From IMG/VR virus record IMGVR_UViG_3300009060_000024: a stretch of 20,000 bases of DNA; one strand, given 5' to 3'. The notes beneath the pieces were generated by a model. That model worked only from the letters and a program-made list of their open reading frames with translations. It ran no database searches and was not told the DNA's origin. The stretch comes from an uncultured virus (IMG/VR IMGVR_UViG_3300009060_000024). Lineage: Duplodnaviria; Heunggongvirae; Uroviricota; Caudoviricetes. Below are positions 1,895-20,000 of the stretch, piece by piece; position 1 is the first letter of the stretch, and each line of letters opens with the position of its first letter. Made by a program: the position numbers and the translations under genes.

Positions 1895-2030
1895 AAATGG
1901 CTGCTTAGGGCAGCCAATCCGACTACGGGTGCGTATTGTGACGATCATATCTCAACCCTCACTGACCAGGCAAGGGTGCATCTGTTCCTTGCTCTCCCCT
2001 CTATTTAATATTGCGCCGAGGAGGCGCAAG
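1895..2030 (-). ncRNA. Candidate structured RNA filling the tRNA-Asn/tRNA-Arg spacer
   Basis: No ORF; several hairpins, a possible 5' pseudoknot, and a 3' CCUAA hairpin that recurs at 19953-19977. Confidence 0.45.
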
Positions 2031-2104
2031 CGCCTGCCCGAGGAATCGAACCTCGAACCTTCTGGGTAACAGCCAGATGCTCTACCAGGTTGAGCTAGGC
2101 AGGC
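2031..2104 (-). tRNA. tRNA-Asn(GTT)
   Basis: GCCTGCC/GGCAGGC acceptor, G73; arm TCTGG-CTGTTAC-CCAGA. Confidence 0.95.
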
Positions 2105-2346
2105 TTATAGGGGATTTTATGCCTCCCCCACAGAGCATCGGCACTCCAACACGCCACCATTACACAATTTGTGAATCCTGATGTTAAGTTCAGGCTTCAC
2201 CATCCCACGTGTCAATTGTCCCGACGAATCAACCTATCGAATGAGGTCTACGTTGTTGTGTACTCTATCTTCCGTGATATGATACGAGTTATGGTAGCAG
2301 GTAAGCTCTCGCTCGCGTGTCAATGTGGCATGTTTTACATGCCGAG

Positions 2347-2419
2347 TGGACCACCTCGGATTTGAACCGAGATCTGCACGTCCCAAACGTGCAATGATAC
2401 CAAGGTACACCAGTGGTCC
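2347..2419 (-). tRNA. tRNA-Pro(TGG)
   Basis: GGACCAC/GTGGTCC acceptor; arm GCACG-TTTGGGA-CGTGC. Confidence 0.95.
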
Positions 2420-2422
2420 AAA

Positions 2423-2535
2423 TGGGAGTGGGAGGGATCGAACCCCCGTCACAGATGTCATGATTGAGTTAGCGACATATGGCAATTTTGTTTGATGCTC
2501 ACCATTACTGTGACATTCCATTAAATTACACTCCC
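2423..2535 (-). ncRNA. tRNA-like RNA with the anticodon arm replaced by a branched domain
   Basis: Perfect acceptor GGGAGTG/CACTCCC+A; T-arm GGGGG-TTCGATC-CCTCC; 7-bp GTCACAG/CTGTGAC helix enclosing two hairpins. Confidence 0.7.
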
Positions 2536-2687
2536 TCGTTTATCGCTTCTATTAACGTTTTTTCAAACGACGATTTAGTTACTCCGGGGCATTGTGGACA
2601 GATGATTACATCTTGATCACGAGGATATACGACCCTGTAGAAGTCGTCGCTTATGTAACCTCCACAGTTCTCGCACTCGTGTGACAC
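2526..2687 (-). CDS. 53-aa CPxCG-related haloarchaeal-type Zn-finger protein (not in ORF track)
   Basis: GTG start; MSHECENCGGYISDDFYRVVYPRDQDVIICPQCPG...EGV; last codons overlap the tRNA-like RNA. Confidence 0.7.
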   Translation of the reverse strand: MSHECENCGGYISDDFYRVVYPRDQDVIICPQCPGVTKSSFEKTLIEAINEGV

Positions 2688-2688
2688 A

Positions 2689-3546
2689 CTATGACTTTAG
2701 GGAACGTGGTTTTATAATTCTTTCGGGTAGTGTTATACGATTCTCATCGTTCGGGAATCGTGGAGGTATCATCCAACTTTGTTTTATGCCACATTCCCAG
2801 TTAGATGTTATCTTCATTGGGTAATGGTTATCTAAATATATGTTAACAGTATCTGTGTTAACGATGGTCGAGTCTAGATAACCCATAGACATTATACAGT
2901 CTGTTATATGCTCCTCAGACTCATCATGCGGAGAGCCTTCATAATGGTCAACGTTACTCCAGTCTATATCATAGTCATCAAAATCTTCCCAATGAATACG
3001 CTCTGCCATTTCAGAGTCATCCGAGTCTGTCCACATATAGAACAACCCATCTCTTGCACTTAGATACATGTATCCATTCTTCTTATCCCCCATCCCCTTA
3101 TCATAGTCGTTAATAAAATCGCTTATGAAGGAGAAATCGTTGGTAATTTTAACAGATGTGTCTAGATCAGGAACTTGATCTGGGACACCTGATACTTGGT
3201 CAGGATCTGTCATTGGGAACTTATATTCCCTGTTGTCTGCATCAAGCTGAAGTTTATATAATTTCCCGGCAGATTGTACTATCTCGAACGTAACAGTATC
3301 ATCGTTCACACTCGAAACGTAATCTATGATTCTGCTAACGTCTATGCCAATACGTGGAAACTCTCCAACTTCCCACACCTCCATCGACTCGGATGGTATA
3401 AACGCTGCTTGAAGTGCAGTGTTTGACATTTCATTAACTCTTATAACCATCCCTTTTTCACTCATGTTTATGAGTAACTCATCTCTGTACTCATTGAGTG
3501 AATTGAATACATCATACAGCCTGTCCGCTTGTATCTCCATTTTCAT
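2689..3546 (-). CDS. pcn: DNA sliding clamp (PCNA-like)
   Basis: PCNA-type N-terminus (MEIQADRLYDVFNSLNEYRDELLINMSEKGMVIR), IGIDV, HYPMKIT, and WMIPPR matching the xxAPR C-terminal motif. Confidence 0.85.
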   Translation of the reverse strand: MKMEIQADRLYDVFNSLNEYRDELLINMSEKGMVIRVNEMSNTALQAAFIPSESMEVWEVGEFPRIGIDVSRIIDYVSSVNDDTVTFEIVQSAGKLYKLQLDADNREYKFPMTDPDQVSGVPDQVPDLDTSVKITNDFSFISDFINDYDKGMGDKKNGYMYLSARDGLFYMWTDSDDSEMAERIHWEDFDDYDIDWSNVDHYEGSPHDESEEHITDCIMSMGYLDSTIVNTDTVNIYLDNHYPMKITSNWECGIKQSWMIPPRFPNDENRITLPERIIKPRSLKS

Positions 3547-3821
3547 TTATGATCTAGCCAATTGTCTGCTGTTACGTTTGTCTTTCCGTTACTACCGTTT
3601 GAACTCTTCTCAAGGTCTATGTCAGTCTCTTCTATAACATAGTCTGCCATGAGTGTTTCCAACACCTTTATTCTCCTCTCTATATTTTCCATTCTCTTAT
3701 CATACTCTACTACAAGTTTATACATCCTCTTAAGCCTTTCGTCATCTGTCTGTGCTTCGTCAACGTCATCTGGAGTAGTTTCGTCTTTATCTCCAGTGTC
3801 AACTATATCATCTAGTCCCAT
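3543..3821 (-). CDS. Hypothetical acidic coiled-coil protein
   Basis: Heptad-like YDKRMENIERRIKVLETLM; overlaps both neighbours. Confidence 0.7.
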   Translation of the reverse strand: MGLDDIVDTGDKDETTPDDVDEAQTDDERLKRMYKLVVEYDKRMENIERRIKVLETLMADYVIEETDIDLEKSSNGSNGKTNVTADNWLDHK

Positions 3822-4249
3822 TTATTACTCGTGGGCTGTTTATTGTTGTTCCATTCTCTGCCACTGTTAACAAGCGACGAAACTGCGTCGTCAACCGATG
3901 TTGTAATGGCATCAGAATGATACTCTAAGAACACGGGTATGTCATCCTTGCTCGATTCATCTGTAAGAAGCACTGATGGTATCCCAAGGGAATAAGCTAC
4001 ATGATTCTCGTAGTACGTTCCACATGTATTGAATGGTTCTATAACCCGCATCAGTATTCCGTCACTGTCCTTAACAGCGTTTTTACATACTTCTGGGATT
4101 GATTTTCGGTCTTCGTGTTTGCACAGATTTATTGGGTTGATCCAATCAATACTTGGGTACCTGTCTATTATGTCCTCTCTCCATTCGTTAGCGTATTCTA
4201 TGCTTTCAACCGCGTCAACTGGGCCTGCAAGGTAGTACATTTTATCCAT
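3812..4249 (-). CDS. Nucleoside 2-deoxyribosyltransferase-like / nucleotide N-hydrolase family protein
   Basis: YLAGP, WR...INP, SDGIL, GTYYE, AYSLGIP motifs. Confidence 0.85.
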   Translation of the reverse strand: MDKMYYLAGPVDAVESIEYANEWREDIIDRYPSIDWINPINLCKHEDRKSIPEVCKNAVKDSDGILMRVIEPFNTCGTYYENHVAYSLGIPSVLLTDESSKDDIPVFLEYHSDAITTSVDDAVSSLVNSGREWNNNKQPTSNKWD

Positions 4250-4251
4250 TG

Positions 4252-4422
4252 TTATTTGTTGTTCAGCTTAGTGTATCTGTCGCTTGTGATGTATTGACCT
4301 GGCTCCTCATCATGCACGACATAATACAGCTCGCATTTGATGCATTTCCACCTTCGTTTGTACCTCTTTGTATTAAGCTCCTTACAGAAGGAACCACACA
4401 CATCACATCTCTTTGACGGCAT
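4252..4422 (-). CDS. 56-aa Zn-ribbon microprotein (not in ORF track)
   Basis: MPSKRCDVCGSFCKELNTKRYKRRWKCIKCELYY...; fills the gap between genes. Confidence 0.65.
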   Translation of the reverse strand: MPSKRCDVCGSFCKELNTKRYKRRWKCIKCELYYVVHDEEPGQYITSDRYTKLNNK

Positions 4423-4429
4423 TGGAGTT

Positions 4430-4624
4430 CTATTTATCCCTTATTATGTTTGCCACCAAGCCATTTGCACAATCTTTACAGAGATCATACGAAATATCTG
4501 TCTTACTGTTTGGATATGTATGCATTGTAGATGTGAATTTGGCCTTTGACCACACCGCAGGGTAGTTGACATTCTCTTGTTGTTTGCCACATTTATCGCA
4601 CCTGTGCAGTCTTGTTGTTGTCAT
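4430..4624 (-). CDS. Small Zn-finger protein
   Basis: CDKCG...DLCKDC; GAGGTGA Shine-Dalgarno. Confidence 0.75.
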   Translation of the reverse strand: MTTTRLHRCDKCGKQQENVNYPAVWSKAKFTSTMHTYPNSKTDISYDLCKDCANGLVANIIRDK

Positions 4625-4635
4625 ACTTCACCTCA

Positions 4636-4674
4636 AGCACACTGGAGGAATCGAACCTCCACAAACCATTGTGC
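4636..4674 (-). ncRNA. tRNA minihelix-like element (acceptor + T-arm only)
   Basis: GCACAAT-GGTTTGT-GGAGG-TTCGATT-CCTCC-AGTGTGC-T. Confidence 0.6.
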
Positions 4675-4693
4675 GTGGAACAGATTGGTTAAC

Positions 4694-5488
4694 TTAGTCT
4701 ATTAACGCCTTAACACCTCCAAGTTTGCCGTTCTTTACCGGACAGTAATCGGAATGCGAACAGTATTGGCACTCCTTCTCATAAGCCGGCACCTGCTTCT
4801 TATCAAAGTACTGCATCTTCTCTTTCCAGAACCTTGTGTCCATCCCATCAAGCTGCTCGTTAGTATATCTGTTGCCAGTCCTGTATCCAAAGTCCTTAAG
4901 GGCGTTATGGATACTGTGTGCCTTGCTCTTAACCACCTCCCAATTATCTTCACTCATCGTGCCAGGCATCACGGTTATATCATTAACTAAGTCTCTGGAC
5001 TTACTGTTAATCATTATAAGACCGTATGTGTCAGCATCATACATATGAGCGTATGTATTTGCCTGACTCATGTATTTGTACAACCTTCCGTGACCACTCG
5101 ATGGAGGGATGGACGAATACTTTATGTCGAATATTGTTGTCTCCCCGTCCTTTGTGCAGATTATGTCACACTTACCTGTGATCGACACTTCATCGTCTAT
5201 CTGGCACTGTGACGGCACTTCATATGAGGTGTCTACTGGGTGATAGCCAGCCCTGTTAAGGGCGTCTGTCATCAACCCAGTCTCTTGGAGGTAGTAATGG
5301 ACAGCGCTTCCCTGAAACAGCCAGCAATTAAGAACTGTCTCATCATCCGTCATCCAGTCGAGGAACACCTTTAGAGGACATCCTGTAATCTGTGACGGAT
5401 GGTATTCTCCTAGAACATGTTTGCCATACGAGACGTTGTTCTCGTATAGAACATCTCCAAGAGACTCCTCAATAAGAGTGTCGTTCAT
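4694..5488 (-). CDS. Cas4-like PD-(D/E)XK exonuclease with Fe-S cysteines
   Basis: HPSQITGC, GSAVH, GKCD...DIK, QxxxY, CQYCSHSDYC. Confidence 0.88.
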   Translation of the reverse strand: MNDTLIEESLGDVLYENNVSYGKHVLGEYHPSQITGCPLKVFLDWMTDDETVLNCWLFQGSAVHYYLQETGLMTDALNRAGYHPVDTSYEVPSQCQIDDEVSITGKCDIICTKDGETTIFDIKYSSIPPSSGHGRLYKYMSQANTYAHMYDADTYGLIMINSKSRDLVNDITVMPGTMSEDNWEVVKSKAHSIHNALKDFGYRTGNRYTNEQLDGMDTRFWKEKMQYFDKKQVPAYEKECQYCSHSDYCPVKNGKLGGVKALID

Positions 5489-5661
5489 TCTACATCACCC
5501 AAGCCAATGACGTTATAAGCCTTAGCCTCTGAGTGAGTGGACATTTTCTCAGCCTTCGACATGGCTTCGTCAACACTGTCAGCATCAACCTTCAATCCGC
5601 TATCGTCATACTCCACATCATCAGGACTAAAAAACTGGGTGAACAAGTGTTTAATCTTCAT
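5485..5661 (-). CDS. 58-aa hypothetical protein (not in ORF track)
   Basis: MKIKHLFTQFFSPDD...VIGLGDVE; ATGA overlaps on both sides. Confidence 0.7.
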   Translation of the reverse strand: MKIKHLFTQFFSPDDVEYDDSGLKVDADSVDEAMSKAEKMSTHSEAKAYNVIGLGDVE

Positions 5662-6344
5662 TCTAACACAGAATCTTTACTAACTTCTTCAGCGGATACA
5701 CTTCCTCCTCCAACGAGGTCACTGATGGCACGGTTCTTGGCACGAGTCTCTGCAGTTGCCATTATGTCGTGTTCGTTAACCTCCTTGGTGGACTTGAGAC
5801 GCCTCCAGCTCCCGTCAACCTTGAACACGTTTTCATCATCAACATCATACACCTTGTGCTGCTCAACGTCCTTCATGTTTCCACCTATGTACTCCATGTG
5901 GTTGGATTCATTTGAAGCGCATGTGGCCCAGCTCGACGCCTTCTTTCCGTTAGGTGCCTCTGCAGTTGCTTCAACTCTCCATGTAAGGACTCCATCATCG
6001 ACAGACTTCTCCTTGTCGCTAACGTAGAACGAAACGTTAAACGCTGTCGCAATCTTTCGCCATCCGCTCTTTGTTACGAACGTCTGTTTACGTTTACCAG
6101 ATCCAATTGTCTGCTTATCAGAATCTGTCAGAAGCTTGTTCTTGATGTCCTCGAATTGGTCGTATACACCTACAACCTCCTCGATGTTGTCAACAGGTCT
6201 TACAAGGGACGATTCACCAGCATCTCTTGCACCGACGTTATCGTATGCAACTGTTGAATCAGATGACGGTTCAACATCGATGACATCAACATCATCGCTG
6301 TCACTAACGTCTGAAAGGAAATCTTCTCCTGACATATCACTCAC
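5658..6344 (-). CDS. Putative single-strand annealing protein (Rad52/Sak-like superfamily)
   Basis: KSGWRKIA...VEATAEAPNGK...ATAETRAKNRAISDLVG; next to an exonuclease. Confidence 0.65.
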   Translation of the reverse strand: MSDMSGEDFLSDVSDSDDVDVIDVEPSSDSTVAYDNVGARDAGESSLVRPVDNIEEVVGVYDQFEDIKNKLLTDSDKQTIGSGKRKQTFVTKSGWRKIATAFNVSFYVSDKEKSVDDGVLTWRVEATAEAPNGKKASSWATCASNESNHMEYIGGNMKDVEQHKVYDVDDENVFKVDGSWRRLKSTKEVNEHDIMATAETRAKNRAISDLVGGGSVSAEEVSKDSVLE

Positions 6345-6492
6345 CGTTTTCGTCTAGCATCTCTGCCAATTCAACAATGCGTCTTTGAACATCGTTACAC
6401 TTTCCATTGAACTCGCCAGTATCCAAAGATGCATACTCCTGCACCGTTTGTATCTGGTTTACTAATTCAGTAATCTCTATGGAGGGTATCAT
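6337..6492 (-). CDS. 51-aa hypothetical protein (not in ORF track)
   Basis: MIPSIEITELVNQ...LDENGE; fills the gap between genes. Confidence 0.6.
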   Translation of the reverse strand: MIPSIEITELVNQIQTVQEYASLDTGEFNGKCNDVQRRIVELAEMLDENGE

Positions 6493-6495
6493 ACT

Positions 6496-7437
6496 CTAGT
6501 CGAACAGACCGTCTGTAAGTTCATCCTCATCGTCCTCGCTCTGGTTGTTATGCTCCTCGATAACATCAACGATAACATCAACTATCGCATCGTCATTGTC
6601 AATGTCGAGTTTGTTTGATACCACCATAACGAGCTTGTCCATGCGATCATCGTCGCGTGAAACCTCCCACACAGAAGGCTCACCCTCTCCAAGCTGTTCG
6701 ACTAGGTTGGCAATGTCGTCATACGGCACCGGATCAGACTCGTTATCCTCAACATCGTCATCTGATTCATCGGCGTCTAACCATCCACCATTGCTGGCGT
6801 CTTCGACCTCTGAACCATCGTCACCGTCACTAGAGTCCTCTTCTTCAGTACTGTCGGTGTCCTCCACAACCTCCTCGTCCTCTTCCGGCTCGGCGAATTG
6901 CTCTTCGCCATCGTCTTCATCTGATTCGTCTGCTGCAAACCCATCATCTGACATGGCCTTAGCAGCATACTCCTTAACCTCCTCAAGAGTGGCTATTCCA
7001 CGAACAGGATACACACTCTCGATAATCTCCCCGTTGTCCTTCTCATACTCGTCTATCTCGCCAATGACGATAACGTCGTCGCCCGAGTCGATCTTCTTAA
7101 GATCGTTCTTGTCGGGGAACGTGCATCTCATCCAGTCACCAATATAGTCTAACGGAAGAGATGCTGCGCCCTCCCACGGTTCGTCAAGGTACTCCCACAC
7201 AGTTCCATTCTCAAGGGACGGAACACTCATCAGCAGTACCGTATGCGTGATGTTGTTATCCGTAGTATACTGGAACTGTGGTTCCCCCTCGGCAAACTTA
7301 TTCTCGTTCACAGCAGTAGCGCAAATCTTCGCCATCTGCTCTTCCGTGATCTTATTGCGTTCTTGCCGCCTCTCGGCAGTCTTCTGACGCACAGCCTTTG
7401 CAACATCCTCTCCAAATACTTCGCTAAGGTCGGTCAT
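6496..7437 (-). CDS. Highly acidic protein, possible OB-fold ssDNA-binding protein
   Basis: IDSGDDVIVIGEIDEYE resembles OB-fold strands; long D/E linker; located in the recombination module. Confidence 0.55.
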   Translation of the reverse strand: MTDLSEVFGEDVAKAVRQKTAERRQERNKITEEQMAKICATAVNENKFAEGEPQFQYTTDNNITHTVLLMSVPSLENGTVWEYLDEPWEGAASLPLDYIGDWMRCTFPDKNDLKKIDSGDDVIVIGEIDEYEKDNGEIIESVYPVRGIATLEEVKEYAAKAMSDDGFAADESDEDDGEEQFAEPEEDEEVVEDTDSTEEEDSSDGDDGSEVEDASNGGWLDADESDDDVEDNESDPVPYDDIANLVEQLGEGEPSVWEVSRDDDRMDKLVMVVSNKLDIDNDDAIVDVIVDVIEEHNNQSEDDEDELTDGLFD

Positions 7438-7580
7438 TATTCGTTGTTGTTGTATTCGTCAACTCGATTCTTGATGAAGCTGATAAGCGGCTCATCTAAA
7501 TTGATGTTTCTAGGAACAGTATTTCTATACTCCTCCCAGAGAGTCTTATCGACTTCCAGAGGGTATGTTTTGGTTGGCAT
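7437..7580 (-). CDS. 47-aa ribbon-helix-helix-like DNA-binding protein (not in ORF track)
   Basis: MPTKTYPLEVDKTLWEEYRNTVPRNINLDEPLISFIKNRVDEY: beta strand plus two helices; first gene after a promoter. Confidence 0.7.
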   Translation of the reverse strand: MPTKTYPLEVDKTLWEEYRNTVPRNINLDEPLISFIKNRVDEYNNNE

Positions 7581-7610
7581 ACGTTGCGTTTGCACACACG
7601 TACCGGGGGT

Positions 7611-7621
7611 ACATAACCTTT
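7611..7621 (-). promoter_or_regulatory. Putative archaeal BRE/TATA promoter (AAAGGTTATGT)
   Basis: About 30 nt upstream of the RHH ATG; similar motif at 12631, 16205 and 18263. Confidence 0.55.
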
Positions 7622-7650
7622 ACTAACCTAAGGTTATGCAAAGTCACTCG

Positions 7651-8805
7651 TCATCGAACGTCGCTGTACCGTGCCTCGTACCGGCACCCGTGGAGTGCGT
7701 CAAAATACGCCTGCCCGGCCAGCTCGTCCGGTTTTTCTATCATCCCGTGGGATATACCGTATCCGACCAAAACGCGCCACGGGACCGCGTGCGTGCCCAC
7801 AAAGCCTTTGTCAACAGCCGTACACCAAGCACGGTAGTGTAGAGTATCATCTCTGTCCCATTTGCGTCTAACGTCATCACATGATCTTCCAGTAGCCTCT
7901 ACTGCTAAGAACTGTTGCGCGTTTAGACCACATCCTTGCGAACTCCCATAATCATGCCTCCAACATGTAAACGTGTCTCCATCTGAGTTCTTCATGAAGT
8001 TCGATCCGGTTTCACTTCCATGAACAGGATGTGCTATCCTCTTGCCCGGAGAAAGCCATGGCAACACATCATCAGCGTCCAACTTATAGAAATCGTATCT
8101 TGTGTCTTTATTTGACGTTGATGAGTATGTCTTTGACGGATGGTAATCTGGTCTTGTTGGCTTTATGTATTCTTGAAGAGCCTCCATCATATCATCCTTA
8201 GATATTGATGTGATCGAATCACCTCTAAGAGGTCCATATCTGTTGCCACTAGGATGAACAGACCCCGGACCAACTACATACCCGTGAGGATCACATTTGA
8301 CCTCGCCTAAGTGCGACCACTCATATTGCTTAACACATTCTCCATCACTATCAATCCAGCATTGATAATCGTCATCACTACACTCATGAGGTTTTTCTTT
8401 ATAGTGCAGTATCTGTCTCACATTCATTCCCTCGCATTTATAGAATAGATGGACACCATCTCTTGATCCTGTCACTTGGTAGAGTGTGTCTGGCAATTTA
8501 GACGTTATGTCATCAACATAGCTCTTGTCATCTATATCAATAACTGCTAGGTCATTTGCGCATGCTATCCCGTAACCATATCCAGCGTCGAAGTACGCAT
8601 TAAGAATCTCGCTATCTGCTGCATACCTATTATCCTCAAACCCATGAGCATAATTCCATCCTTTATTTTTGAATGGTATAGGGAAAAACACCTCGCCTAA
8701 GCACCACAGGTCGTGAGGTATCTTATCCTGCCAATTTGGACGCCACCATTGATGTTTTCTTTTGTGTGCCCAATCTGGCTCATGGCCGTCGCACTTCTGA
8801 CTCAT
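7651..8805 (-). CDS. Bifunctional primase-polymerase (prim-pol) with C-terminal His/Cys domain
   Basis: GYGI...VIDIDD, TGSRDGVHLFY, GYVVGPGSVHPSG; C-terminal HPVH...FTCWRH. Confidence 0.88.
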   Translation of the reverse strand: MSQKCDGHEPDWAHKRKHQWWRPNWQDKIPHDLWCLGEVFFPIPFKNKGWNYAHGFEDNRYAADSEILNAYFDAGYGYGIACANDLAVIDIDDKSYVDDITSKLPDTLYQVTGSRDGVHLFYKCEGMNVRQILHYKEKPHECSDDDYQCWIDSDGECVKQYEWSHLGEVKCDPHGYVVGPGSVHPSGNRYGPLRGDSITSISKDDMMEALQEYIKPTRPDYHPSKTYSSTSNKDTRYDFYKLDADDVLPWLSPGKRIAHPVHGSETGSNFMKNSDGDTFTCWRHDYGSSQGCGLNAQQFLAVEATGRSCDDVRRKWDRDDTLHYRAWCTAVDKGFVGTHAVPWRVLVGYGISHGMIEKPDELAGQAYFDALHGCRYEARYSDVR

Positions 8806-12630: not shown

Positions 12631-12640
12631 TATAAACCTT
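12631..12640 (-). promoter_or_regulatory. Putative BRE/TATA promoter (AAGGTTTATA)
   Basis: Typical haloarchaeal promoter pattern just after the UvrD stop. Confidence 0.6.
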
Positions 12641-12644
12641 GCTA

Positions 12645-14522
12645 CTATTGGTTGTCCCAATTCCCATTCATCGTTCGTTGTCCAGACTGCCACTTAGACG
12701 CCTTGTACTCGTCTCCAAGCAAGTTTGATAGTTCTATCGCGGAAGACGGGTCTATAACACCCTGTGCCAACACAAGCTTTTCTGAAGCCCGTGTCATGCC
12801 CACATAATACACGCGCCTCTCCTCATCTGTAAGTGGCACCTGAGATATTGGAGTGTTAATCTGCTCACGTCTATCGACATTTTCATTGAACTCCTCCCTC
12901 ATGTTCGTCATTATTGTCTTTGTTGTGTCCGTTGCCAATAGCACAGTTTCAGCCTCCTTACCTTTGGAGCTGTGTATGGTTCCTATACGGACCCGGTCAG
13001 GGTCCATATCATCGTTACCATTTACAATATTGCCCCTTATGGCAGACTTCTCGTACCAATTCAGCTCTTCTGTTTTGTCTAAGTACATTATGGCAGCACT
13101 TCTGTACTCAGTTTCGTTACGCATAAATGGGAATATCTCATTTAGCCTGTCTTTACTTATGCCTCCAAAGTGAGACATGACCTTTTCAGATTCAGACACG
13201 TCACTCCTGTCATTATACATGTCATCCTCTGCATATTCTATTAGCTGGTCTAACTCATCACCATTTATCTTTCCTTTACCGTTGTGTATTTTAGCGAGGC
13301 CATCTCTAAGAGTGGTTATATCATCACTCCACGTATCATATGTACTCATGTTCCGGTATGGTATGCCTTCATCATGAAGAGTGTCCCTGAACTCATCTAT
13401 ATGATACCTCGCACGGAAAAGTATCATGCACTCGCCATCCTCTATATGCTCCAACACCTGTCTTGTAGAAGGTGCCCTCATGGGAATGAACTCTCCACCA
13501 TCTCCATTTGGAACAACATCTTTCTCTTGTCTGTGGTCTACTTGATGTATAACGCCATCACACACCTCCCAAATCTCTCTTGGGATTCTGTACGTTGTTT
13601 CAAGTACCTCAAAGTCACCTTCTTCGTTAAGCATAAATTCTGGATCTGCACCACTCCATCCATATATGCTTTGGTCATCATCACCTCCAAGATACACCTT
13701 CTCACACACGAGCTTTTGAAGCAAATACCACTCCCATTGAAGAGCTGTTAAGTCCTGCACCTCGTCAACGTACAGTACCTTTGTATCAATGAAAGCTCCT
13801 ATACCACGTATAATGTCTGGATCAAGCTGAGGGTCATTACACGCTTCAAGGAACATCTCCCTTGTAGTTGTGTTTTCATCTGCGAATAATACTCCCCAAC
13901 CAAGATTTTCTAGCTGTTTGTATCCAAGCTCGACGACATCCTCTATCATATCACCGAACCCTACCCACCCTCTGTCGTCCTTCCACATCTCCCATTGGCT
14001 CATTAGCCATTCTGGGTCTTCTGGGAATCCCCAATCAGCTGGACACTTCTCCCAGTCCTCTATATCAAGGCGGTTAGACTGGAGCCAACTGTATATTCGG
14101 AATAGCGCGTTTCCTTCTTGTTGGTCAGCTCCCATTATGTCATCTTGATCGTCGTCCCAGCCGAAGTTGAGATCATGTGCATCGCAGAACTTCTTTTTCT
14201 TCCAATGGTCTACAGTATCTTCACGCTTAAGACCAAGAGTGCTAAAGCATCTGCTGTGAATAGTTGTAACTCTGTCGTCTATCTTGTAACGAGGAGCATC
14301 TGTCATACGCTCAAGCCTGTCAGCCGCCTCGTCAACACCCGCATTGGTGTATGTTACAAGCATCTGTTCGTTAAGAGAATACTTATCAGAGTTCTCCAAG
14401 AACAGTCCGTCAAGGTCTAGATCTGGATTTCCAACAACGCGGGTGGTTTTTCCAGTTCCAGGAGCTCCAATCACCTTATAGACTTCCGGCCCTGGTGAAT
14501 CGTCCATGTTGTCCCTACTCAT
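12645..14522 (-). CDS. UvrD/Rep-family SF1 helicase
   Basis: GAPGTGKT, TYTNA, TIHS, VDEVQD, GDDDQSIYGWSGA, TYR, TIHSSKGKE, EERRVYYVGMTRA; start moved to MSRDNM. Confidence 0.95.
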   Translation of the reverse strand: MSRDNMDDSPGPEVYKVIGAPGTGKTTRVVGNPDLDLDGLFLENSDKYSLNEQMLVTYTNAGVDEAADRLERMTDAPRYKIDDRVTTIHSRCFSTLGLKREDTVDHWKKKKFCDAHDLNFGWDDDQDDIMGADQQEGNALFRIYSWLQSNRLDIEDWEKCPADWGFPEDPEWLMSQWEMWKDDRGWVGFGDMIEDVVELGYKQLENLGWGVLFADENTTTREMFLEACNDPQLDPDIIRGIGAFIDTKVLYVDEVQDLTALQWEWYLLQKLVCEKVYLGGDDDQSIYGWSGADPEFMLNEEGDFEVLETTYRIPREIWEVCDGVIHQVDHRQEKDVVPNGDGGEFIPMRAPSTRQVLEHIEDGECMILFRARYHIDEFRDTLHDEGIPYRNMSTYDTWSDDITTLRDGLAKIHNGKGKINGDELDQLIEYAEDDMYNDRSDVSESEKVMSHFGGISKDRLNEIFPFMRNETEYRSAAIMYLDKTEELNWYEKSAIRGNIVNGNDDMDPDRVRIGTIHSSKGKEAETVLLATDTTKTIMTNMREEFNENVDRREQINTPISQVPLTDEERRVYYVGMTRASEKLVLAQGVIDPSSAIELSNLLGDEYKASKWQSGQRTMNGNWDNQ

Positions 14523-15039
14523 CTTCCATAACCATGTTGTGTATTGAATTGTGAGGTTGGTTTCTACCAGTTGGTTCTTCATCTACTTCTGCTTCTTCTA
14601 CCTTAATCGTCCTGTTCCTCGTGTCATTGGTACTTCTCCAATGGTCATCATCTGTCCATTTTACCCACTTGCGTTCATATACAGATTTTACTTCTCTAAC
14701 GTAAACCTGCTTTAAATGAACAGATTTTGAAACCGACTTTTTCAAGTTAGATAACGGTATGCAGTCAATATAATTAGTGTTGTATCTGCTCTCATCGGTC
14801 GGCCCTCTGAACAATAGATGCTCACCATCAAGAATGGGCCACAAGGATTTGATCCAAACGTAACCCTCTTTTAGATCGACTCTGAATCTCTTTGGGTGAC
14901 ATCTGTATTGGGTATGTTCCTCTTCTCTCCATTCTAAATCTACGGGGGTCATTCTTTTTTCATCCTTTGTTTTGTCATTATATGAATCTTCTTGTTGAGT
15001 TTCGTGTCGGAGTTTTAATATTGATGGAACGTCAAACAT
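14515..15039 (-). CDS. Hypothetical protein
   Basis: 174-aa ORF tiling the operon. Confidence 0.65.
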   Translation of the reverse strand: MFDVPSILKLRHETQQEDSYNDKTKDEKRMTPVDLEWREEEHTQYRCHPKRFRVDLKEGYVWIKSLWPILDGEHLLFRGPTDESRYNTNYIDCIPLSNLKKSVSKSVHLKQVYVREVKSVYERKWVKWTDDDHWRSTNDTRNRTIKVEEAEVDEEPTGRNQPHNSIHNMVMEDE

Positions 15040-15045
15040 CTAATA

Positions 15046-15447
15046 TCACCCCCAGTTAAAATCTGCAAATGTTCTAAGCTTAATATTTGATGGCATCGTA
15101 AACATTACATACGACAACACCCATGCCACATTTCCAACGTCATATCGTATAACAGCTCCGAGATCCTCCATTTTATTGAGGTAATATGTAGCTGTTGATA
15201 TGTGCATGTTTGTATACTCAGCTATTTGTCCCGTACTCATTACATCATTGCCATGTTCAAAGGCGTTAAGTATTGCATGGTATGGGTTGTATTTGTTTCT
15301 GTTCTCCTCAAAGAACTTTTTTGTTCGTTTTGTATCAGTTGTCATTTGTGTCACGTCAATGTTTGTGTGGCTCCACACAATCTGGCCTGCGAGAACATCT
15401 GTCTCTAATACCTCTTTGCCCTTTTCGTTTGTGTCCGTATTGAACAC
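15046..15447 (-). CDS. Winged-helix DNA-binding protein
   Basis: MSTGQIAEYTNMHISTATYYLNKMEDLGAVIRYDVG. Confidence 0.75.
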   Translation of the reverse strand: MFNTDTNEKGKEVLETDVLAGQIVWSHTNIDVTQMTTDTKRTKKFFEENRNKYNPYHAILNAFEHGNDVMSTGQIAEYTNMHISTATYYLNKMEDLGAVIRYDVGNVAWVLSYVMFTMPSNIKLRTFADFNWG

Positions 15448-15516
15448 CAGATGGGCCTATTGTTATTCTGCATCCGCATTCACTACAATAAGTCTCGACC
15501 ACTCCATTCTTCTCTC

Positions 15517-15708
15517 CTACTGTAAGTGATCCTTTATTTCCAAAACCCATTTTAATGTATCGAGGTGGTGCTTTTTTCTTTCGTACTCGATCTTTGCATC
15601 CTGTATATCCTTGGTTGAACTCATGAAGTCTCCTTTGTACTTTCTTAACTCGATCATTTCACTCCTTAAATCTGATATTTTAGATTCTATATCCTCACGA
15701 CTCCTCAT
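15517..15708 (-). CDS. Small coiled-coil hypothetical protein
   Basis: MRSREDIESKI...LDTLKWVL pattern; ATGA overlap. Confidence 0.65.
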   Translation of the reverse strand: MRSREDIESKISDLRSEMIELRKYKGDFMSSTKDIQDAKIEYERKKHHLDTLKWVLEIKDHLQ

Positions 15709-15902
15709 TCGTGGTTAAGCGACCACCATTTGTCGAACAGTGATCTTGCAGTCTGTTCAGATATGTCGCTTAGTTCGTCCTCCCCAACTCTCTTGTGCCA
15801 TCCCTTGACGAATGATTCTTTTGCTATCTCCTTTACGTCTTCTTTCGTGTATTGATATTCGATGTTCATATCTCCGGTTGCCGATCTCTTATGTTGTTCC
15901 AT
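15705..15902 (-). CDS. Hypothetical protein
   Basis: 65-aa ORF directly after tRNA-Leu. Confidence 0.65.
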   Translation of the reverse strand: MEQHKRSATGDMNIEYQYTKEDVKEIAKESFVKGWHKRVGEDELSDISEQTARSLFDKWWSLNHE

Positions 15903-15911
15903 TACGCTAAG

Positions 15912-15993
15912 TGGTGCTGGCCGGATTTGAACCGACGAATGACTAACAACTCGGTCTTAAGCCGAGCGCCTTTGGCCGCTTGGCTACAGCACC
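15912..15993 (-). tRNA. tRNA-Leu(TAA)
   Basis: GGTGCTG/CAGCACC acceptor, A73; arm CTCGG-CTTAAGA-CCGAG; extended variable region. Confidence 0.93.
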
Positions 15994-15997
15994 ACAA

Positions 15998-16068
15998 TGC
16001 GCCATCGAGGAATCGAACCTCGAACTCTACCTTGTAAGGGTAGCGTCATACCGTTTGACCAACGGCGC
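15998..16068 (-). tRNA. tRNA-Val(TAC)
   Basis: GCGCCGT/ATGGCGC acceptor; arm CTACC-CTTACAA-GGTAG. Confidence 0.95.
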
Positions 16069-16069
16069 T

Positions 16070-16200
16070 ATATATACTCTTTAGAGATGTATACTCTATT
16101 TACTACTATACAAACAGGCGGCGCGAAGCGCCGCCTAAGCTGTATACTCTAACAGCTTAATAGAGTAATACAGCTCATATTACTACTAGTTGGTACTAGA
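16070..16200. repeat. AT-rich non-coding region with TATACTCT x3, TACTACTA x2 and two adjacent inverted repeats (origin candidate)
   Basis: AGGCGGCGC-GAA-GCGCCGCCT at 16116-16136; TAAGCTGT-N8-ACAGCTTA at 16136-16159. Confidence 0.55.
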
Positions 16201-16204
16201 CTAC

Positions 16205-16243
16205 TATAACCTTTATGGTTCATAGTTGATAGTAAGGTTTAAG
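16205..16243. promoter_or_regulatory. Back-to-back promoter-like motifs: AAAGGTTATA (-) and AAGGTTTAAG (+)
   Basis: 16205-16214 on the minus strand and 16234-16243 on the plus strand. Confidence 0.5.
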
Positions 16244-16300
16244 TGGGGTGTGTTCTATATGGGTATAGAGAAAGAGATCTGTATGTTATTCAAAACAGTT

Positions 16301-16819
16301 TCACTCGTCGTACTTTACTGTATTATTACAGTCTGGGTAACGAGTGCATCCATAGAACTTCCCATATTCACCCTCTCTGATAACCATAACAGATCCGCAT
16401 TCATCACAAACCTTGAGGCCTCCACTACCCTTCTCCATCACGTTGTCAATCTTGTTCGAGAGATTCTTTCTCCAAGTAGCTATACGAAGAGTTTTTGTAT
16501 CTCCGATAAGCTTCTTCATGTTAGGCCTGTAGAAGGCAACGAGCCGTATCGCATCAGCCCCCTTCGATCTAGCCTTATCAGTTCGAGTGTCAATAGTAGT
16601 GAAGCAAGTGAGTGTGACATCACTGTTTCCAGGTACAAAATCTCTGGTAGAGAAAACATATTCCATGGACGGTTTGATCTCACTGTCTATATACCATTCT
16701 TCAGGTCTTTCTCTGAAGAATTTGTCGAAGTCGTCAAAAACTGGTTGGACGTAGTTGCTCGTGTTTTGTTCGATTCTTTGCTCGGCAAGGTCGTCCTCGG
16801 TGAGGTCTTTAAGTCCCAT
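16301..16819 (-). CDS. Protein with C-terminal topoisomerase-type C4 zinc ribbon
   Basis: CDECGSVMVIREGEYGKFYGCTRYPDC. Confidence 0.85.
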   Translation of the reverse strand: MGLKDLTEDDLAEQRIEQNTSNYVQPVFDDFDKFFRERPEEWYIDSEIKPSMEYVFSTRDFVPGNSDVTLTCFTTIDTRTDKARSKGADAIRLVAFYRPNMKKLIGDTKTLRIATWRKNLSNKIDNVMEKGSGGLKVCDECGSVMVIREGEYGKFYGCTRYPDCNNTVKYDE

Positions 16820-16821
16820 AT

Positions 16822-17085
16822 TTATGGGTTTAGATATTGGTCAGCCTCTTCATCTGTCATTATACTACATTCTACCATTGTATTAACTATACGCTCTTGG
16901 GCATTAAGTATTTCTTCATTCTCAGGAGGTACAGTTACCAAAGTGCCACAGTTGACACACATTGACGCCATTTGCCATGTGCCGGAATCGGTACTGTCTG
17001 TTATAACAACAGATGGAACCATTCCAACTGTAGCATGTTTGGTGTCATCCACACAGTATTGACAGTGGTGGGTTTTTGTTCTCAT
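16822..17085 (-). CDS. Small Zn-finger protein
   Basis: HCQYC...CVNCG. Confidence 0.7.
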   Translation of the reverse strand: MRTKTHHCQYCVDDTKHATVGMVPSVVITDSTDSGTWQMASMCVNCGTLVTVPPENEEILNAQERIVNTMVECSIMTDEEADQYLNP

Positions 17086-17189
17086 TAATCGTGGTGCGTC
17101 TTCATGTGCTGCTCGTACTCCTCATGTGTATCACCTGAGAAGCCGCACAGTACACATTCTGTTGGGTAAAAGTGATCTATGCTATCCAT
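17085..17189 (-). CDS. 34-aa C2H2 zinc-finger microprotein (not in ORF track)
   Basis: MDSIDHFYPTECVLCGFSGDTHEEYEQHMKTHHD; TAATG overlap with the next gene. Confidence 0.7.
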   Translation of the reverse strand: MDSIDHFYPTECVLCGFSGDTHEEYEQHMKTHHD

Positions 17190-17230
17190 TGTTGCAGAGT
17201 ATGTGTTTTATGTGGGTACTCAGCCACTAA

Positions 17231-17304
17231 CGGGCCAGGAGGGATTTGAACCCCCGATTATCTGATTAAAAGTCAGTCCCTTTGCCGGGCTAAGGTACTG
17301 GCCC
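17231..17304 (-). tRNA. tRNA-Lys(TTT)
   Basis: GGGCCAG/CTGGCCC acceptor, G73; loop CTTTTAA. Confidence 0.92.
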
Positions 17305-17310
17305 AAAAAA

Positions 17311-17742
17311 TTATGAGTCCAGCTCTTTCCTTATCTGTGCCGCCGTATGGTGGACACAGAAGTCTTCTCCTTCTATTTCTACACCAGACGAGGTGCAGTC
17401 TTTACCGCATATGTAACAAGTTGTCTTTGGTCTGAACCCATCATCTAGTGAATCTGGGTTTGTGGTAGCGGCTTGATGAACTATCTTGTACCGCTTGTGT
17501 GCAGGGAGATTACTCGTAACCTCTCCAACAGTATATCTTGTGTGATCAATGATAAACTGTTTTACCTGCTCCCACATTTCCTCATCGAAGTATTTGACCT
17601 TATCGTTTGGGCCAGTTACCTTCTTGTAGTAATCAGGTTCTGAGTTCTTGTTACTGGTGCGTTTTCTGCCAGAAGAACTTTTGGATTTTGATCTGGACTT
17701 GTCTTTATCTACTCCTTCAGGGAGTAATTCGTCAAGTCCCAT
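17311..17742 (-). CDS. Hypothetical protein with C-terminal Cys/His motif
   Basis: CYICG...FCVHH; basic Ser-rich N-terminal region. Confidence 0.75.
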   Translation of the reverse strand: MGLDELLPEGVDKDKSRSKSKSSSGRKRTSNKNSEPDYYKKVTGPNDKVKYFDEEMWEQVKQFIIDHTRYTVGEVTSNLPAHKRYKIVHQAATTNPDSLDDGFRPKTTCYICGKDCTSSGVEIEGEDFCVHHTAAQIRKELDS

Positions 17743-17778
17743 TAGCTATTCCTCCAATGAAGGAGGGCCTGAAACGTT

Positions 17779-18068
17779 TTACTCGTCGTCGGGGCCGAGG
17801 GTGTTGAAGAGATCGCGGAGCGGCTCGTAGTTGTTCCGCTTCTCTGCCTCCACAACCGCGTGGAGGAACTTACCGACCGGGACGTTGATGTTCTGACCGA
17901 GCATGTTACGAAGTTCCTGCGCCGAATCGTAGAACTCCTGCTCGTGGCGGTGTTCCGTACCATCAGGGATCTCGTCTGCCGCATTACGCGGATTCCAGAA
18001 CTTGATGTGGGTACTCTTACCGCCGCTAGACGACTCCTCGGACTCTGGGGTGAGGTCTCCAATTCCCA
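17779..18068 (-). CDS. Hypothetical acidic protein (start MGIGDLTPES), visibly more GC-rich codons
   Basis: ATG follows a structured leader; the longer ORF start lies in the structured RNA. Confidence 0.7.
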
Positions 18069-18084
18069 TGGTTAATACACTCCA

Positions 18085-18242
18085 TTTGTAAGGCGATGAG
18101 TACTCGCCCCCCGTGTTTCCCCACTGGAACATCCCTCGTACCAGTCAGGCTCGCAGCCGATCAGGGTCCGGCTGAGTTCCAACACTGGGATCGAACCAGA
18201 TTTCGTCCTATTGGAAACCGCATGTCTACGTCCCCTCACAAA
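18085..18242 (-). ncRNA. Candidate promoter-driven structured RNA or leader containing a tRNA minihelix-like module
   Basis: Terminal helix TTTGTGAGG/CCTTACAAA; internal TTCCAAT/GTTGGAA stem with a TTCGATC T-loop arm; CAGCCGG/TCGGCTG and ACTGG/CCAGT hairpins. Confidence 0.55.
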
Positions 18243-18262
18243 CGTTAGTACGCACGGGGTTA

Positions 18263-18273
18263 CTATAAACCTT
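18263..18273 (-). promoter_or_regulatory. Putative BRE/TATA promoter (AAGGTTTATAG)
   Basis: Predicted start site near 18240, coinciding with the 5' strand of the terminal helix. Confidence 0.6.
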
Positions 18274-18349
18274 CCGTTTTACGTCCGCCTTTGTGAAAAC
18301 GCACTTTTCACGTAAGCGGGAGGTGGGCCATAACGAATATACGATGTGG

Positions 18350-18580
18350 CTACCTAACCTCTACCCCTTCGAGATGCTTGATTCGGTCCTTGAACACCCT
18401 CATTGGATTGCCCTTATATTTTGCCTTGTTCTTTGTTGACTCTACATATTTACGTACTGTGCTTTCAGATACTCCTACATTAGATGCAATGCTTCTTTTA
18501 CTTAGACCAACAGCGTGGAGTGCTACTATTTCAGCTACCTTTTGATCTGATATACTCTTAAAGTTACCATTATAAGTCAT
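18350..18580 (-). CDS. Helix-turn-helix DNA-binding protein (start MTYNGN)
   Basis: LHAVGLSKRSIASNVGVSESTVRKYV. Confidence 0.8.
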   Translation of the reverse strand: MTYNGNFKSISDQKVAEIVALHAVGLSKRSIASNVGVSESTVRKYVESTKNKAKYKGNPMRVFKDRIKHLEGVEVR

Positions 18581-19064
18581 GGTTGCCCTCCAACCATGAC
18601 CAATCAATTGGCGACGGTGACTCATCCCCCTCGTCAGCATATTGGTCAACATGCCTCTCAGCACGCTCTTTGGCATTCCCAACTCTCATATCAATATCAT
18701 CAAACATGGACATGCACTCATTGTACATCTCAATATTCTTTCCATACTGCTTACCTCTGAAGAACGCATACCCTTCATCATCTGGTATTTCATCATTTCT
18801 TATTGCAGATTTGCACATGTCCTCAGCTCTGTCATCTGGAGGGTAGCACATCATTCCATGAAAAGCTGTTGAGTAGCATAGCCAATCAATAAACTCAGAT
18901 GGGGACATAGACGCATCTTTAAGAACGTTGCATCTTATACCATCTAAACTGTTCCATTGACGTGCTATGTCTAGAGATCTCTGTATCTCTTCATCCCCCT
19001 CGATTTCTTCGTTTGAATCGAGACAATCTAATTTTATTTCTATCGTGAGTATATTATGCGTCAT
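18570..19064 (-). CDS. Hypothetical acidic protein
   Basis: 164-aa ORF with an upstream GGTGA element. Confidence 0.7.
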   Translation of the reverse strand: MTHNILTIEIKLDCLDSNEEIEGDEEIQRSLDIARQWNSLDGIRCNVLKDASMSPSEFIDWLCYSTAFHGMMCYPPDDRAEDMCKSAIRNDEIPDDEGYAFFRGKQYGKNIEMYNECMSMFDDIDMRVGNAKERAERHVDQYADEGDESPSPIDWSWLEGNHDL

Positions 19065-19085
19065 ATGTTCACCATCTTTACCTAA

Positions 19086-19158
19086 CGCTCACACAGGGAC
19101 TCGAACCCTGAATCATCTGCTTAGAAGGCAGACGCCTTATCCATTTGGCCATGTGAGC
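19086..19158 (-). tRNA. tRNA-Arg(TCT)
   Basis: GCTCACA/TGTGAGC acceptor; arm TCTGC-CTTCTAA-GCAGA. Confidence 0.95.
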
Positions 19159-19178
19159 AACCATAGATCAGTTATTGT

Positions 19179-19454
19179 TTATGCGTGCCATTGGTCTATC
19201 TCATCTTCTATCCCAATTTTAAGTATCTGAGATTTTGATAAGCTCTTTAGCACGCATCTACTGCACCAATCGTAATATCCAACAGGGAATACGCTTATAT
19301 CTTTTTCTATTTGTCTCCTAGCACATGTGTCGGAACTACATTTTATATCTCCAGAATCTGATTCAATGTGCATAACACTTCGAGATGGGTTTGCTGTTAT
19401 CTTAACCTTGCTAACCCCGAGGGTGTCGCGCATTTGATTCGTGTCTTTGATCAT
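19179..19454 (-). CDS. Hypothetical protein with His/Cys motif
   Basis: H...KC...WCSRC. Confidence 0.65.
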   Translation of the reverse strand: MIKDTNQMRDTLGVSKVKITANPSRSVMHIESDSGDIKCSSDTCARRQIEKDISVFPVGYYDWCSRCVLKSLSKSQILKIGIEDEIDQWHA

Positions 19455-19455
19455 G

Positions 19456-19686
19456 TTAAAACAACTTTTGTTCTATTACAGATCCAATTATATATGCAGT
19501 TAATAAGAACGCCATTGCTATTAAAGCATAAATGAAAAATGTTAACATGTGTGTGATTGCCATATATAAAACTAGCAAAAACAAAGACGAGATGCCAATA
19601 ACAATAAAACCAGCGAGAAACCTGATTATTATTGCATCTGTTCTTAACGCCCCATGACTCCGTTTGTCAGGTATCCATTTCACCAT
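19456..19686 (-). CDS. Small two-TM membrane protein (start MVKWIP)
   Basis: Two long hydrophobic helices; the longer ORF start lies in tRNA-Ala. Confidence 0.65.
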   Translation of the reverse strand: MVKWIPDKRSHGALRTDAIIIRFLAGFIVIGISSLFLLVLYMAITHMLTFFIYALIAMAFLLTAYIIGSVIEQKLF

Positions 19687-19693
19687 TCTTAAG

Positions 19694-19765
19694 TGGACTC
19701 GGTGGGGCTTGAACCCACAGCCTCTTGCTTGCAAAGCAAGCGATCTGCCATTGATCTACGAGCCC
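19694..19765 (-). tRNA. tRNA-Ala(TGC)
   Basis: GGGCTCG/CGAGTCC acceptor with G3:U70, A73; loop TTTGCAA. Confidence 0.96.
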
Positions 19766-19879
19766 TCTGGCACACATTCAGCACGTCTATGAATAACCGT
19801 TTGCAGAGGGAGTGCCACGCCCCCTGGGCCTATTAGACCCTGATCTTGACCATTGGTTTTCCAGATGCAATGGCCCTAA
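19766..19879 (-). ncRNA. Candidate structured RNA filling the tRNA-Gly/tRNA-Ala spacer
   Basis: Four consecutive hairpins and a TGGCAC/GTGCCA pseudoknot pairing; no credible ORF. Confidence 0.45.
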
Positions 19880-19950
19880 TGCACCAGCAGAGATTCGAAC
19901 TCTGGAAGCGAGCTTGGAAGGCTCGAATGATACCACTTCATCACTGGTGC
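19880..19950 (-). tRNA. tRNA-Gly(TCC)
   Basis: GCACCAG/CTGGTGC acceptor, A73; arm CGAGC-CTTCCAA-GCTCG. Confidence 0.95.
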
Positions 19951-20000
19951 TTAATGGTGGGTTAGGCCCACCAATCCTGTGACACTCAACCACGTCTGTA

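Follow-up and report, generated by a model that had tools for sequence, protein, structure and literature searches.

What kind of element is the short hairpin that stands directly in front of two tRNA genes, some 18 kb apart, in the genome of an uncultured tailed virus (IMG/VR record IMGVR_UViG_3300009060_000024)? The stretch considered here, referred to as the window, comprises 20,000 nucleotides (20 kb) of a roughly 80 kb genome (a 79,751-bp contig), and the copy counts given below refer to this window. The first-pass annotation had described two hairpins, each situated just before a tRNA gene, and both the sequences and the coordinates agree with ours. Copy 1 (1920..1896, minus strand) reads GGAT-TGGCTGC-CCTAA-GCAGCCA-TT, with the arms at 1916-1910 and 1904-1898 and the loop at 1909-1905. 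Copy 2 (19977..19953, minus strand) reads GGAT-TGGTGGG-CCTAA-CCCACCA-TT, with the arms at 19973-19967 and 19961-19955 and the loop at 19966-19962. Both copies are 25 nt long and consist of a GGAU flank, a 7-bp stem, a CCUAA loop and a UU flank. When folded, each 25-mer forms the 7-bp stem with the 5-nt loop at -12.0 kcal/mol. Judging by the comparisons described below, the element is real and under selection, and it is restricted to one halovirus lineage.

Four of the seven stem pairs are invariant between the copies, three are changed on both sides (C-G to U-A, U-A to G-C and C-G to G-C), and none is broken. All differences are found in the stem (6 of 14 positions), whereas the loop and the flanks have none (0 of 11). 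This bears out the initial observation that the six differences form three compensatory pairs and leave the loop and flanks invariant. The chance of all six differences falling in the stem is 3003/177100. When six substitutions were drawn at random within the 14 stem bases, all seven pairs were kept in 1112 of 400000 simulated sets; the joint probability of both is about 5e-5. The shuffle control of the covariation tool, which has little power on two rows, gave 68/500. Compensated changes of this kind show, for the two copies compared, that pairing matters in a single strand. Since all six differences are compensated and none of the 11 unpaired positions has changed, the data support selection on both the structure and the sequence of the loop and flanks, as had been suggested for the structure and the loop.

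A plain structural hairpin with no specific partner would be the simplest explanation. It could be an insulator against mispairing with the tRNA, or a 3' cap against 3'-to-5' exonucleases. The stable 7-bp stem directly before the cleavage site is consistent with such a role, and so is the fact that in joint folds of the leader and the tRNA, where the hairpin is kept, that of copy 2 is independent of the tRNA. Moreover, hairpins are found in other spacers of the window too, for example, before tRNA-Asn, tRNA-Lys and tRNA-Val. On the other hand, the minimum-energy joint fold of copy 1 extends the stem into the first bases of the tRNA. Further, a pure insulator should not constrain the loop and flanks. 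Because the unpaired positions of a plain stable hairpin should drift at about the rate of the stem (6/14), the identity of 11 out of 11 loop and flank positions shows, within this comparison, that they are read by something sequence-specific. Hence we consider the purely structural explanation unlikely.

The position of the hairpins is as regular as their sequence. Copy 1 is directly followed by tRNA-Arg(CCT) on the minus strand, which spans 1895..1821 according to ARAGORN or 1894..1822 according to Rfam, and copy 2 is directly followed by tRNA-Gly(TCC) (19950..19880, minus strand), for which both programs give the same span. The last paired base of copy 1 is 3 nt from the 5' end of tRNA-Arg at the Rfam boundary (2 nt by ARAGORN), and the last paired base of copy 2 is 4 nt from the 5' end of tRNA-Gly. 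What follows the hairpin is UUU-G in copy 1 and UUAA-G in copy 2, and then the tRNA at once. The two tRNAs, Arg(CCU) and Gly(UCC), are unrelated in sequence. The former precedes tRNA-Thr, the latter precedes tRNA-Ala and replication genes. The 13 tRNA-type genes and the long open reading frames (ORFs) of the window are all on the minus strand, the same as both hairpins. Since the element lies on the transcribed strand, 3–4 nt before two unrelated tRNAs, a role at the RNA level is suggested, with RNase P as the separating enzyme.

The arrangement is unlikely to arise by chance in the window. The degenerate pattern GGATTGG-N4-CCTAA-N4-CCATT, proposed in the first-pass annotation, matches two sites when up to three mismatches are allowed, and these sites are the two hairpins. 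The expected count is 0.04, and two sites were reached in none of 200 shuffles. Among the variants listed from three DNA sequencing runs, none falls inside either hairpin.

We propose that the two hairpins are paralogues, that they act at the level of RNA as an element peculiar to this virus lineage, and that transcription, presumably from an upstream TATA-like motif, would place each of them at the 3' end of a leader preceding a virus tRNA. The stem would need only to pair, while the CCUAA loop and the GGAU and UU flanks would be read by a sequence-specific partner, most likely a putative viral or host protein. A cut by the host RNase P, 3–4 nt downstream, would then part the hairpin-capped leader from the tRNA. 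Thus described, the element would be a cis-acting recognition hairpin for control or processing at the 3' end of two tRNA leaders, a function that we assign tentatively and with somewhat less than even confidence.

The similarity between the copies is not limited to the hairpin. As the first-pass annotation had noted, both are preceded by the boxes GGTTGAG and GTCACA, and the coordinates agree: on the minus strand, the boxes occupy 1957..1951 and 1942..1937 in copy 1, and 19991..19985 and 19983..19978 in copy 2. The gap between the boxes is 8 nt in copy 1 and 1 nt in copy 2, and the gap between GTCACA and the hairpin is 16 nt and 0 nt, respectively. Only 23 bases upstream of copy 2 are visible before the window edge; in shuffles of these bases, a colinear match of a 7-mer and a 6-mer was obtained in 89 out of 20000 cases, and so the colinearity is beyond chance. 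The repeat has a length of some 50 nt or more, and the copies differ in it by indels of 7 and 16 nt. Paralogy of the two copies beyond the hairpin itself is supported by this upstream homology through two colinear boxes, in line with the earlier claim.

The same evidence bears on the main idea of that annotation, an ncRNA released by RNase P. In this reading, the leader itself would be a small stable trans-acting viral RNA of about 50–85 nt, whose 3' end is made by RNase P, comparable to the small stable RNAs encoded in the tRNA cluster of phage T4. The paralogy reaching beyond the hairpin is in its favour, a 3'-terminal hairpin would stabilise such an RNA, and copy 1 has a predicted promoter of its own, described below. 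However, the part upstream of the hairpin is poorly conserved, given the indels just mentioned, and the second predicted hairpin uses the GTCACA box in different registers in the two copies. The folding z-score of the whole spacer is only -1.6. No target is evident either. The stretch UUAGG after tRNA-Gly, complementary to the loop, is not kept in the related locus L085 (see below); for the same reason, pairing between the loop and the trailer was rejected. A stable trans-acting RNA is in our view improbable.

The leader of copy 1 can be outlined from its surroundings. The spacer between tRNA-Asn and tRNA-Arg is 134 nt long, and in the ORF listing no ORF longer than 22 codons is present in it or overlaps the predicted leader. 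The TATA-like motif TATTAAATAGAG (1999..2010, minus strand) is the predicted promoter of this leader. The 9-mer TAAATAGAG occurs twice in the window in exact form, each time before a tRNA cluster: at 2007..1999, some 80 nt upstream of copy 1, and 34 nt before tRNA-Val; a copy of TAAATAGAG with one mismatch is situated 36–37 nt before tRNA-Ser. The distance from the resulting promoter-like motif T[AT][AT]ATAGAG (minus strand, 16094-16102, 1285-1293 and 1999-2007) to the tRNA that follows is 34–37 nt for tRNA-Val and tRNA-Ser and 113 nt for tRNA-Arg(CCT). L085, too, retains a related stretch in front of its tRNA-Val. These copies are probably the TATA boxes of the tRNA units. In the halovirus HF2, the TATA box starts at -26 from the mapped start sites (PMC8707807). 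The positions from -34 to -37 before tRNA-Val and tRNA-Ser hence fit this rule, with predicted leaders of about 10 nt. By the same spacing rule, we infer that the leader of the tRNA-Arg unit is about 85 nt long, starts near 1981 and carries the hairpin at its 3' end (predicted leader RNA 1, 1896..1981, minus strand).

Several other features of the leaders were considered. A 9-codon ORF (MHPCLVSEG, 1955-1981, minus strand) begins where leader 1 is predicted to start, and its stop codon is the TGA within GGTTGAG; the corresponding TGA of copy 2 also closes a frame, one that is open up to the window edge. A leader-peptide attenuator was rejected, as the codons of the 9-codon ORF bear no relation to the downstream tRNAs. 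A coding explanation of the repeat was rejected as well: copy 1 is ORF-free, and five of the six differences would fall in first or second codon positions. The CCU anticodon of tRNA-Arg followed by AA coincides with the loop, but an anticodon-arm mimic was also rejected, since copy 2, with the same loop, precedes tRNA-Gly, and since the register of the loop does not fit a 7-nt anticodon loop. The motif ATGACGCATAA is not enriched (10 matches against 6.7 expected). One more 7-bp hairpin, UUGCGCC-UCCUC-GGCGCAA (2011-2029, minus strand), is situated directly after the 3' end of tRNA-Asn and before the TATA-like motif.

How far does the element extend among relatives? A metagenome scan with the helicase alignment yielded 70 loci. 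The sole close relative retrieved, L085, has 81% helicase identity and is colinear with the window at 2980-19966. Its nucleotide identity to the window is about 72–82% (about 73% in genes), and 95–97% over the tRNAs. The first base of the L085 contig (43 kb) corresponds exactly to the first base of the loop of copy 2. Bases 1-16 of this contig, CCTAACCCACCATTAA, are identical to 19966..19951 in all 16 positions and are followed by tRNA-Gly, which has four differences, while the spacer after tRNA-Gly does not align. Hence constraint on the part of copy 2 that can be seen in L085 is no weaker than on the tRNA. The comparison covers the 3' half of copy 2, and the L085 sequence stops about 1 kb short of the region of hairpin 1. 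The covariance model R1, applied with filters off to the window and six relatives (95,681 bases), retrieved copies 1 and 2 only, with 41.1 and 41.7 bits; the next match has 14.9 bits (E-value 0.13) and is an unrelated hairpin after an ORF in L086. As far as these data reach, the hairpin appears to be specific to this virus lineage.

A number of observations weigh against the proposed recognition hairpin. The loci L086, L087 and L091, with 53–57% helicase identity, have tRNAs but lack the CCTAA-loop hairpin, and no hairpin abuts any of their tRNAs; in particular, tRNA-Arg(CCT) of L086 stands directly behind an ORF, again with no hairpin. Because relatives at this distance have the tRNAs without the hairpin, it is dispensable for tRNA expression. 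A related contig from run X1, which may represent the source sample, matches the window at 1743-1897 and 2753-3111, with 423 other letters replacing the 855 between them. It loses likeness, at the 80% threshold, exactly at 1897, and the strain concerned may thus lack hairpin 1 or have a diverged form of it. The promoter of copy 1 is a prediction, and any promoter of copy 2 would be situated past base 20000. Copy 2 may overlap the last codons of an upstream ORF, as the frame terminated by TAA at 19953..19951 has no other stop before the window edge. Among the window ORFs scanned with Pfam, no candidate for a binding protein was seen. The covariation itself rests on three pairs, in two full copies and one half copy. 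Finally, all stem pairs are of the Watson–Crick type, and such pairs do not distinguish RNA from single-stranded DNA, nor one strand from the other.

The last point is also an argument for a site acting at the level of DNA, as a cruciform or a single-strand hairpin: DNA hairpins would be equally possible. Such a site might mark a recombination or module boundary, or serve as a replication or priming signal or as an operator. The two copies, in direct orientation, bracket an 18-kb replication module (PrimPol, a UvrD-like helicase, a methylase, a nuclease), and both the L085 contig end at the first loop base and the divergence of the run X1 contig at 1897 coincide with the hairpins. However, contig ends and loss of likeness are expected anyway at the edge of a conserved tRNA. 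A role in DNA would hardly account for a location 3–4 nt from two tRNA 5' ends that also follows the direction of transcription. The changed arms would be incompatible with recognition by a dimeric DNA-binding protein, and seven base pairs are short for cruciform extrusion. We thus regard a DNA-level function as distinctly unlikely.

A possible third copy of the element is found within an unusual gene. The tRNA-like gene at 2535..2423 (minus strand), located 3 nt upstream of tRNA-Pro, scores 30.4 bits with the Rfam tRNA model. Its acceptor, D and T arms fit the model, but a 63-nt three-way junction stands in place of the anticodon arm. When relaxed settings are used, ARAGORN reads 2535..2423 as tRNA-Val(GAC) with a 46-nt intron at a non-canonical position. 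Inside this gene, at 2484..2519 (minus strand), there is a GTCACAG box and a 7-bp hairpin with a 13-nt loop, which may be a diverged copy (71% over 35 nt). In the 5' half of copy 2, comprising GTCACAG and the beginning of the hairpin, 18 of 24 positions agree with the interior of this gene, and 19 of 2000 shuffled 24-mers do as well. The covariance model R1 did not detect this candidate.

Accordingly, one may ask whether the hairpins are the structural core of a small element associated with tRNA genes, intron-derived or mobile, of which they would be remnants or insertions. The match of copy 2 to the inside of the tRNA-like gene and the intron read there by ARAGORN are compatible with this. 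So are the scattered T-arm-like fragments in the window, the breaks of homology or of the contig at both hairpins, and the variable tRNA content: the cluster at 15911-16068 is Val-Leu in the window, whereas the corresponding one in L085 (4060-4308) is Val-Ser(GCT)-Leu. The structure of the copies argues otherwise. The 7-bp stem is perfect and lacks the geometry of a bulge-helix-bulge, and there are neither terminal repeats nor target duplications. Only two or three copies exist, with none found in relatives or in the other collections searched. Moreover, compensatory change and an invariant loop indicate continuing selection, unlike what is seen in a decaying remnant. An intron-derived or mobile origin therefore seems doubtful to us.

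The first-pass annotation did not recognise a known motif, and this holds in Rfam. With Rfam 15, whose models cover ribozymes, CRISPR-DR, C/D and H/ACA sRNAs and tRNA-like RNAs among others, the matches in the window at the gathering threshold are tRNAs only, and E-value scans of 1700-2700 and 19760-20000 gave nothing over the hairpins or the spacer at E up to 5 and 10. In the 185,579 species genomes, the strict pattern occurs at nine loci, none of which is fully paired and none of which is near a tRNA. Hence the element does not derive from a host genome of that collection. In IMG/VR, the strict pattern yields four loci: one (L001) has an unpaired stem and three (L002-L004) are paired, two of the latter being the same sequence. 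The relaxed pattern yields at least 120 loci in IMG/VR; among the matches listed, five are fully paired, three of them being the same three records, and the pairing is close to the random binomial expectation. A blastn search of both spacers against phages gave no match, a weak test given that the conserved runs are at most 7 nt. The broader ncRNA (non-coding RNA) family envisaged at the outset is not supported: no related copies with paired stems were found outside the lineage in the relatives, in the 185,579 genomes or in IMG/VR.

The paired look-alikes deserve a separate description. G001 (43100-43124), G002 and G003 have the form GGGATTGG-TTRC-CCTAA-GTAA-CCATTT. They share with the window hairpins the flanks, the loop, the stem length, the first three stem pairs and the pairing of the variable positions, but the shared part is imposed by the search pattern, and a relationship to the window hairpins is unproven. 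In other respects they differ. Each record has one copy, against two in the window, and no tRNA is found within 300 nt of the match; G001, a record of 87 kb, has none over its entire length. The surrounding genes are of the bacterial-phage type, with MORN-repeat proteins and a pyrophosphatase, or a scaffold and a capsid protein. In G001, the hairpin is followed by T6, like an intrinsic terminator. Because of the single copy, the tRNA-free surroundings and the bacterial-phage context, the look-alikes were rejected as family members. The 27-nt look-alike hairpin is itself 26/27 identical in two otherwise different contexts, before the pyrophosphatase gene and between the scaffold and capsid genes.

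In its gene content, the window itself is a halovirus-like replication and tRNA module. The Pfam matches are a UvrD-type helicase, PrimPol, a D12 methyltransferase, a PD-(D/E)XK nuclease and a Zn-ribbon protein. The best named homologues of the helicase are haloarchaeal or nanohaloarchaeal (a Halorarum plasmid, 47%; Nanosalina, 33%; Halalkalicoccus, 29–30%), which fits the original guess of a halovirus. The GC content is 44%. No close relative was found among GenBank phages, nor in IMG/VR by protein (best identity 28%). Several relatives of the helicase (P0019, P0039, P0041, P0044 and others) are about 950–1020 aa long and have the Hint/intein Pfam domains PF01079 and PF14890; these are intein-containing versions of the 620-aa helicase of the window. 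T-arm-like sequences occur outside tRNA genes, at 4630-4690 (minus strand) and about 18190. The T-arm-like GGAGGTTCGATTCCTCC is flanked by a 5-bp acceptor-like stem and is situated just upstream of the ORF 4624..4430. Such stretches may be mini-tRNA processing signals similar to t-elements, or tRNA remnants.

Does the element belong to any of the known systems? Some structural classes can be compared directly. An intrinsic terminator would be a GC-rich hairpin with a run of U behind it, whereas here UUU-G or UUAA-G follows and then at once the tRNA. The bulge-helix-bulge motif has two 3-nt bulges around a 4-bp helix, whereas both copies form an uninterrupted 7-bp helix. A possible likeness to a solitary CRISPR repeat borne by a virus, of the RNA anti-CRISPR type, was also considered; such a repeat would resemble those of the host in sequence and structure, and no Rfam CRISPR-DR model matched the region.

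Haloarchaeal t-elements, reportedly described by Hoelzle et al., are said to be mini-tRNA processing signals. The hairpin resembles them in being a small structured element in a haloarchaeal or haloviral transcript that would make use of the host tRNA-processing enzymes. However, the hairpin is no tRNA mimic: the loop is the 5-nt CCUAA, there is no T-loop of the UUCRANY type and no stack of the acceptor and T arms, and the match of the Rfam tRNA model stops short of the hairpin. Virus tRNA-linked small RNAs are cut out by tRNA-processing enzymes in other systems, the examples being species 1 and 2 RNAs of phage T4 and the tRNA-miRNA units of MHV68. In these, as predicted for the window, a structured non-tRNA RNA is flush with a virus tRNA, and RNase P or tRNase Z would set one of its ends. 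There is no sequence relation, and the T4 and MHV68 RNAs were detected experimentally, whereas the window element is known from sequence alone.

Another parallel is provided by the nut sites of lambdoid phages, which consist of boxA and the boxB hairpin bound by N and occur twice in a genome, each time near the beginning of a long transcription unit. Both in the nut sites and in the window element, linear boxes at variable spacing are followed by a short hairpin with an invariant pentaloop, whose stem needs only to pair. This order of boxes and hairpin is seen in both copies, and proximity to a promoter is predicted for copy 1 only. The nut sites are bacterial and have a loop of the GAAAA type, whereas here the loop is CCUAA and the hairpin touches a tRNA, so that the analogy would be functional only. 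To our knowledge, archaeal viruses are not known to have either an N-like protein or antitermination, and no such protein was seen among the window ORFs scanned with Pfam. By this analogy, two long operons that begin with tRNAs, among them the 18-kb replication module, would each carry the signal at their head. We see only a slim chance that the element is an archaeal-virus counterpart of nut, where a virus factor would load on the transcription or processing machinery and time the expression of middle genes and tRNAs, its action being ended by the release of the leader by RNase P.

The regulatory intergenic repeats of HF2 and other haloferacalesviruses have a genomic role that would be comparable. 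The study by Russ, Pfeiffer and Dyall-Smith (2021, PMC8707807) describes repeats of classes I and II, which are tied to transcript starts, with an 18-kb transcript beginning at one of them, and for which virus-encoded sequence-specific factors are proposed to bind the repeats (PMC8707807). The study also mentions a 9-bp inverted repeat with only two occurrences: one is inside IR4.5, in the place of the gamma motif, and the other is 15 bp downstream of IR1c (PMC8707807). The HF2 repeats and the window hairpins are alike in being short dispersed intergenic repeats of a tailed halovirus, associated with early or middle genes of the replication type. The HF2 repeats keep their positions in relatives, and the window hairpin is kept beside tRNA-Gly in L085, where its 3' half is visible, but is absent from L086, L087 and L091. 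The differences are as clear. The HF2 repeats, as described there, are the promoters themselves, with an AT-rich TATA motif and the start site, and are conserved as sequence, whereas the window hairpin is GC-rich and adjoins tRNAs, its stem has undergone compensatory changes, and the predicted TATA box is some 80 nt upstream of it. The two have no sequence similarity, and the 25-nt repeat lacks the AT-rich TATA motif of a promoter of the HF2 type. We suggest that the window element is a new representative of the known intergenic or leader repeats of viruses, with its function predicted from the sequence comparisons.

The timing of gene expression in haloviruses is little known, and the promoter repeats of HF2 are its main experimentally studied case (PMC8707807). 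If the two hairpins are indeed leader elements with a loop recognised in a sequence-specific manner, they would give access to RNA processing, or to control after initiation, in an archaeal virus. If they are only a lineage-specific leader structure, they would still be of value for annotation, as they mark the starts of two tRNA-led units.

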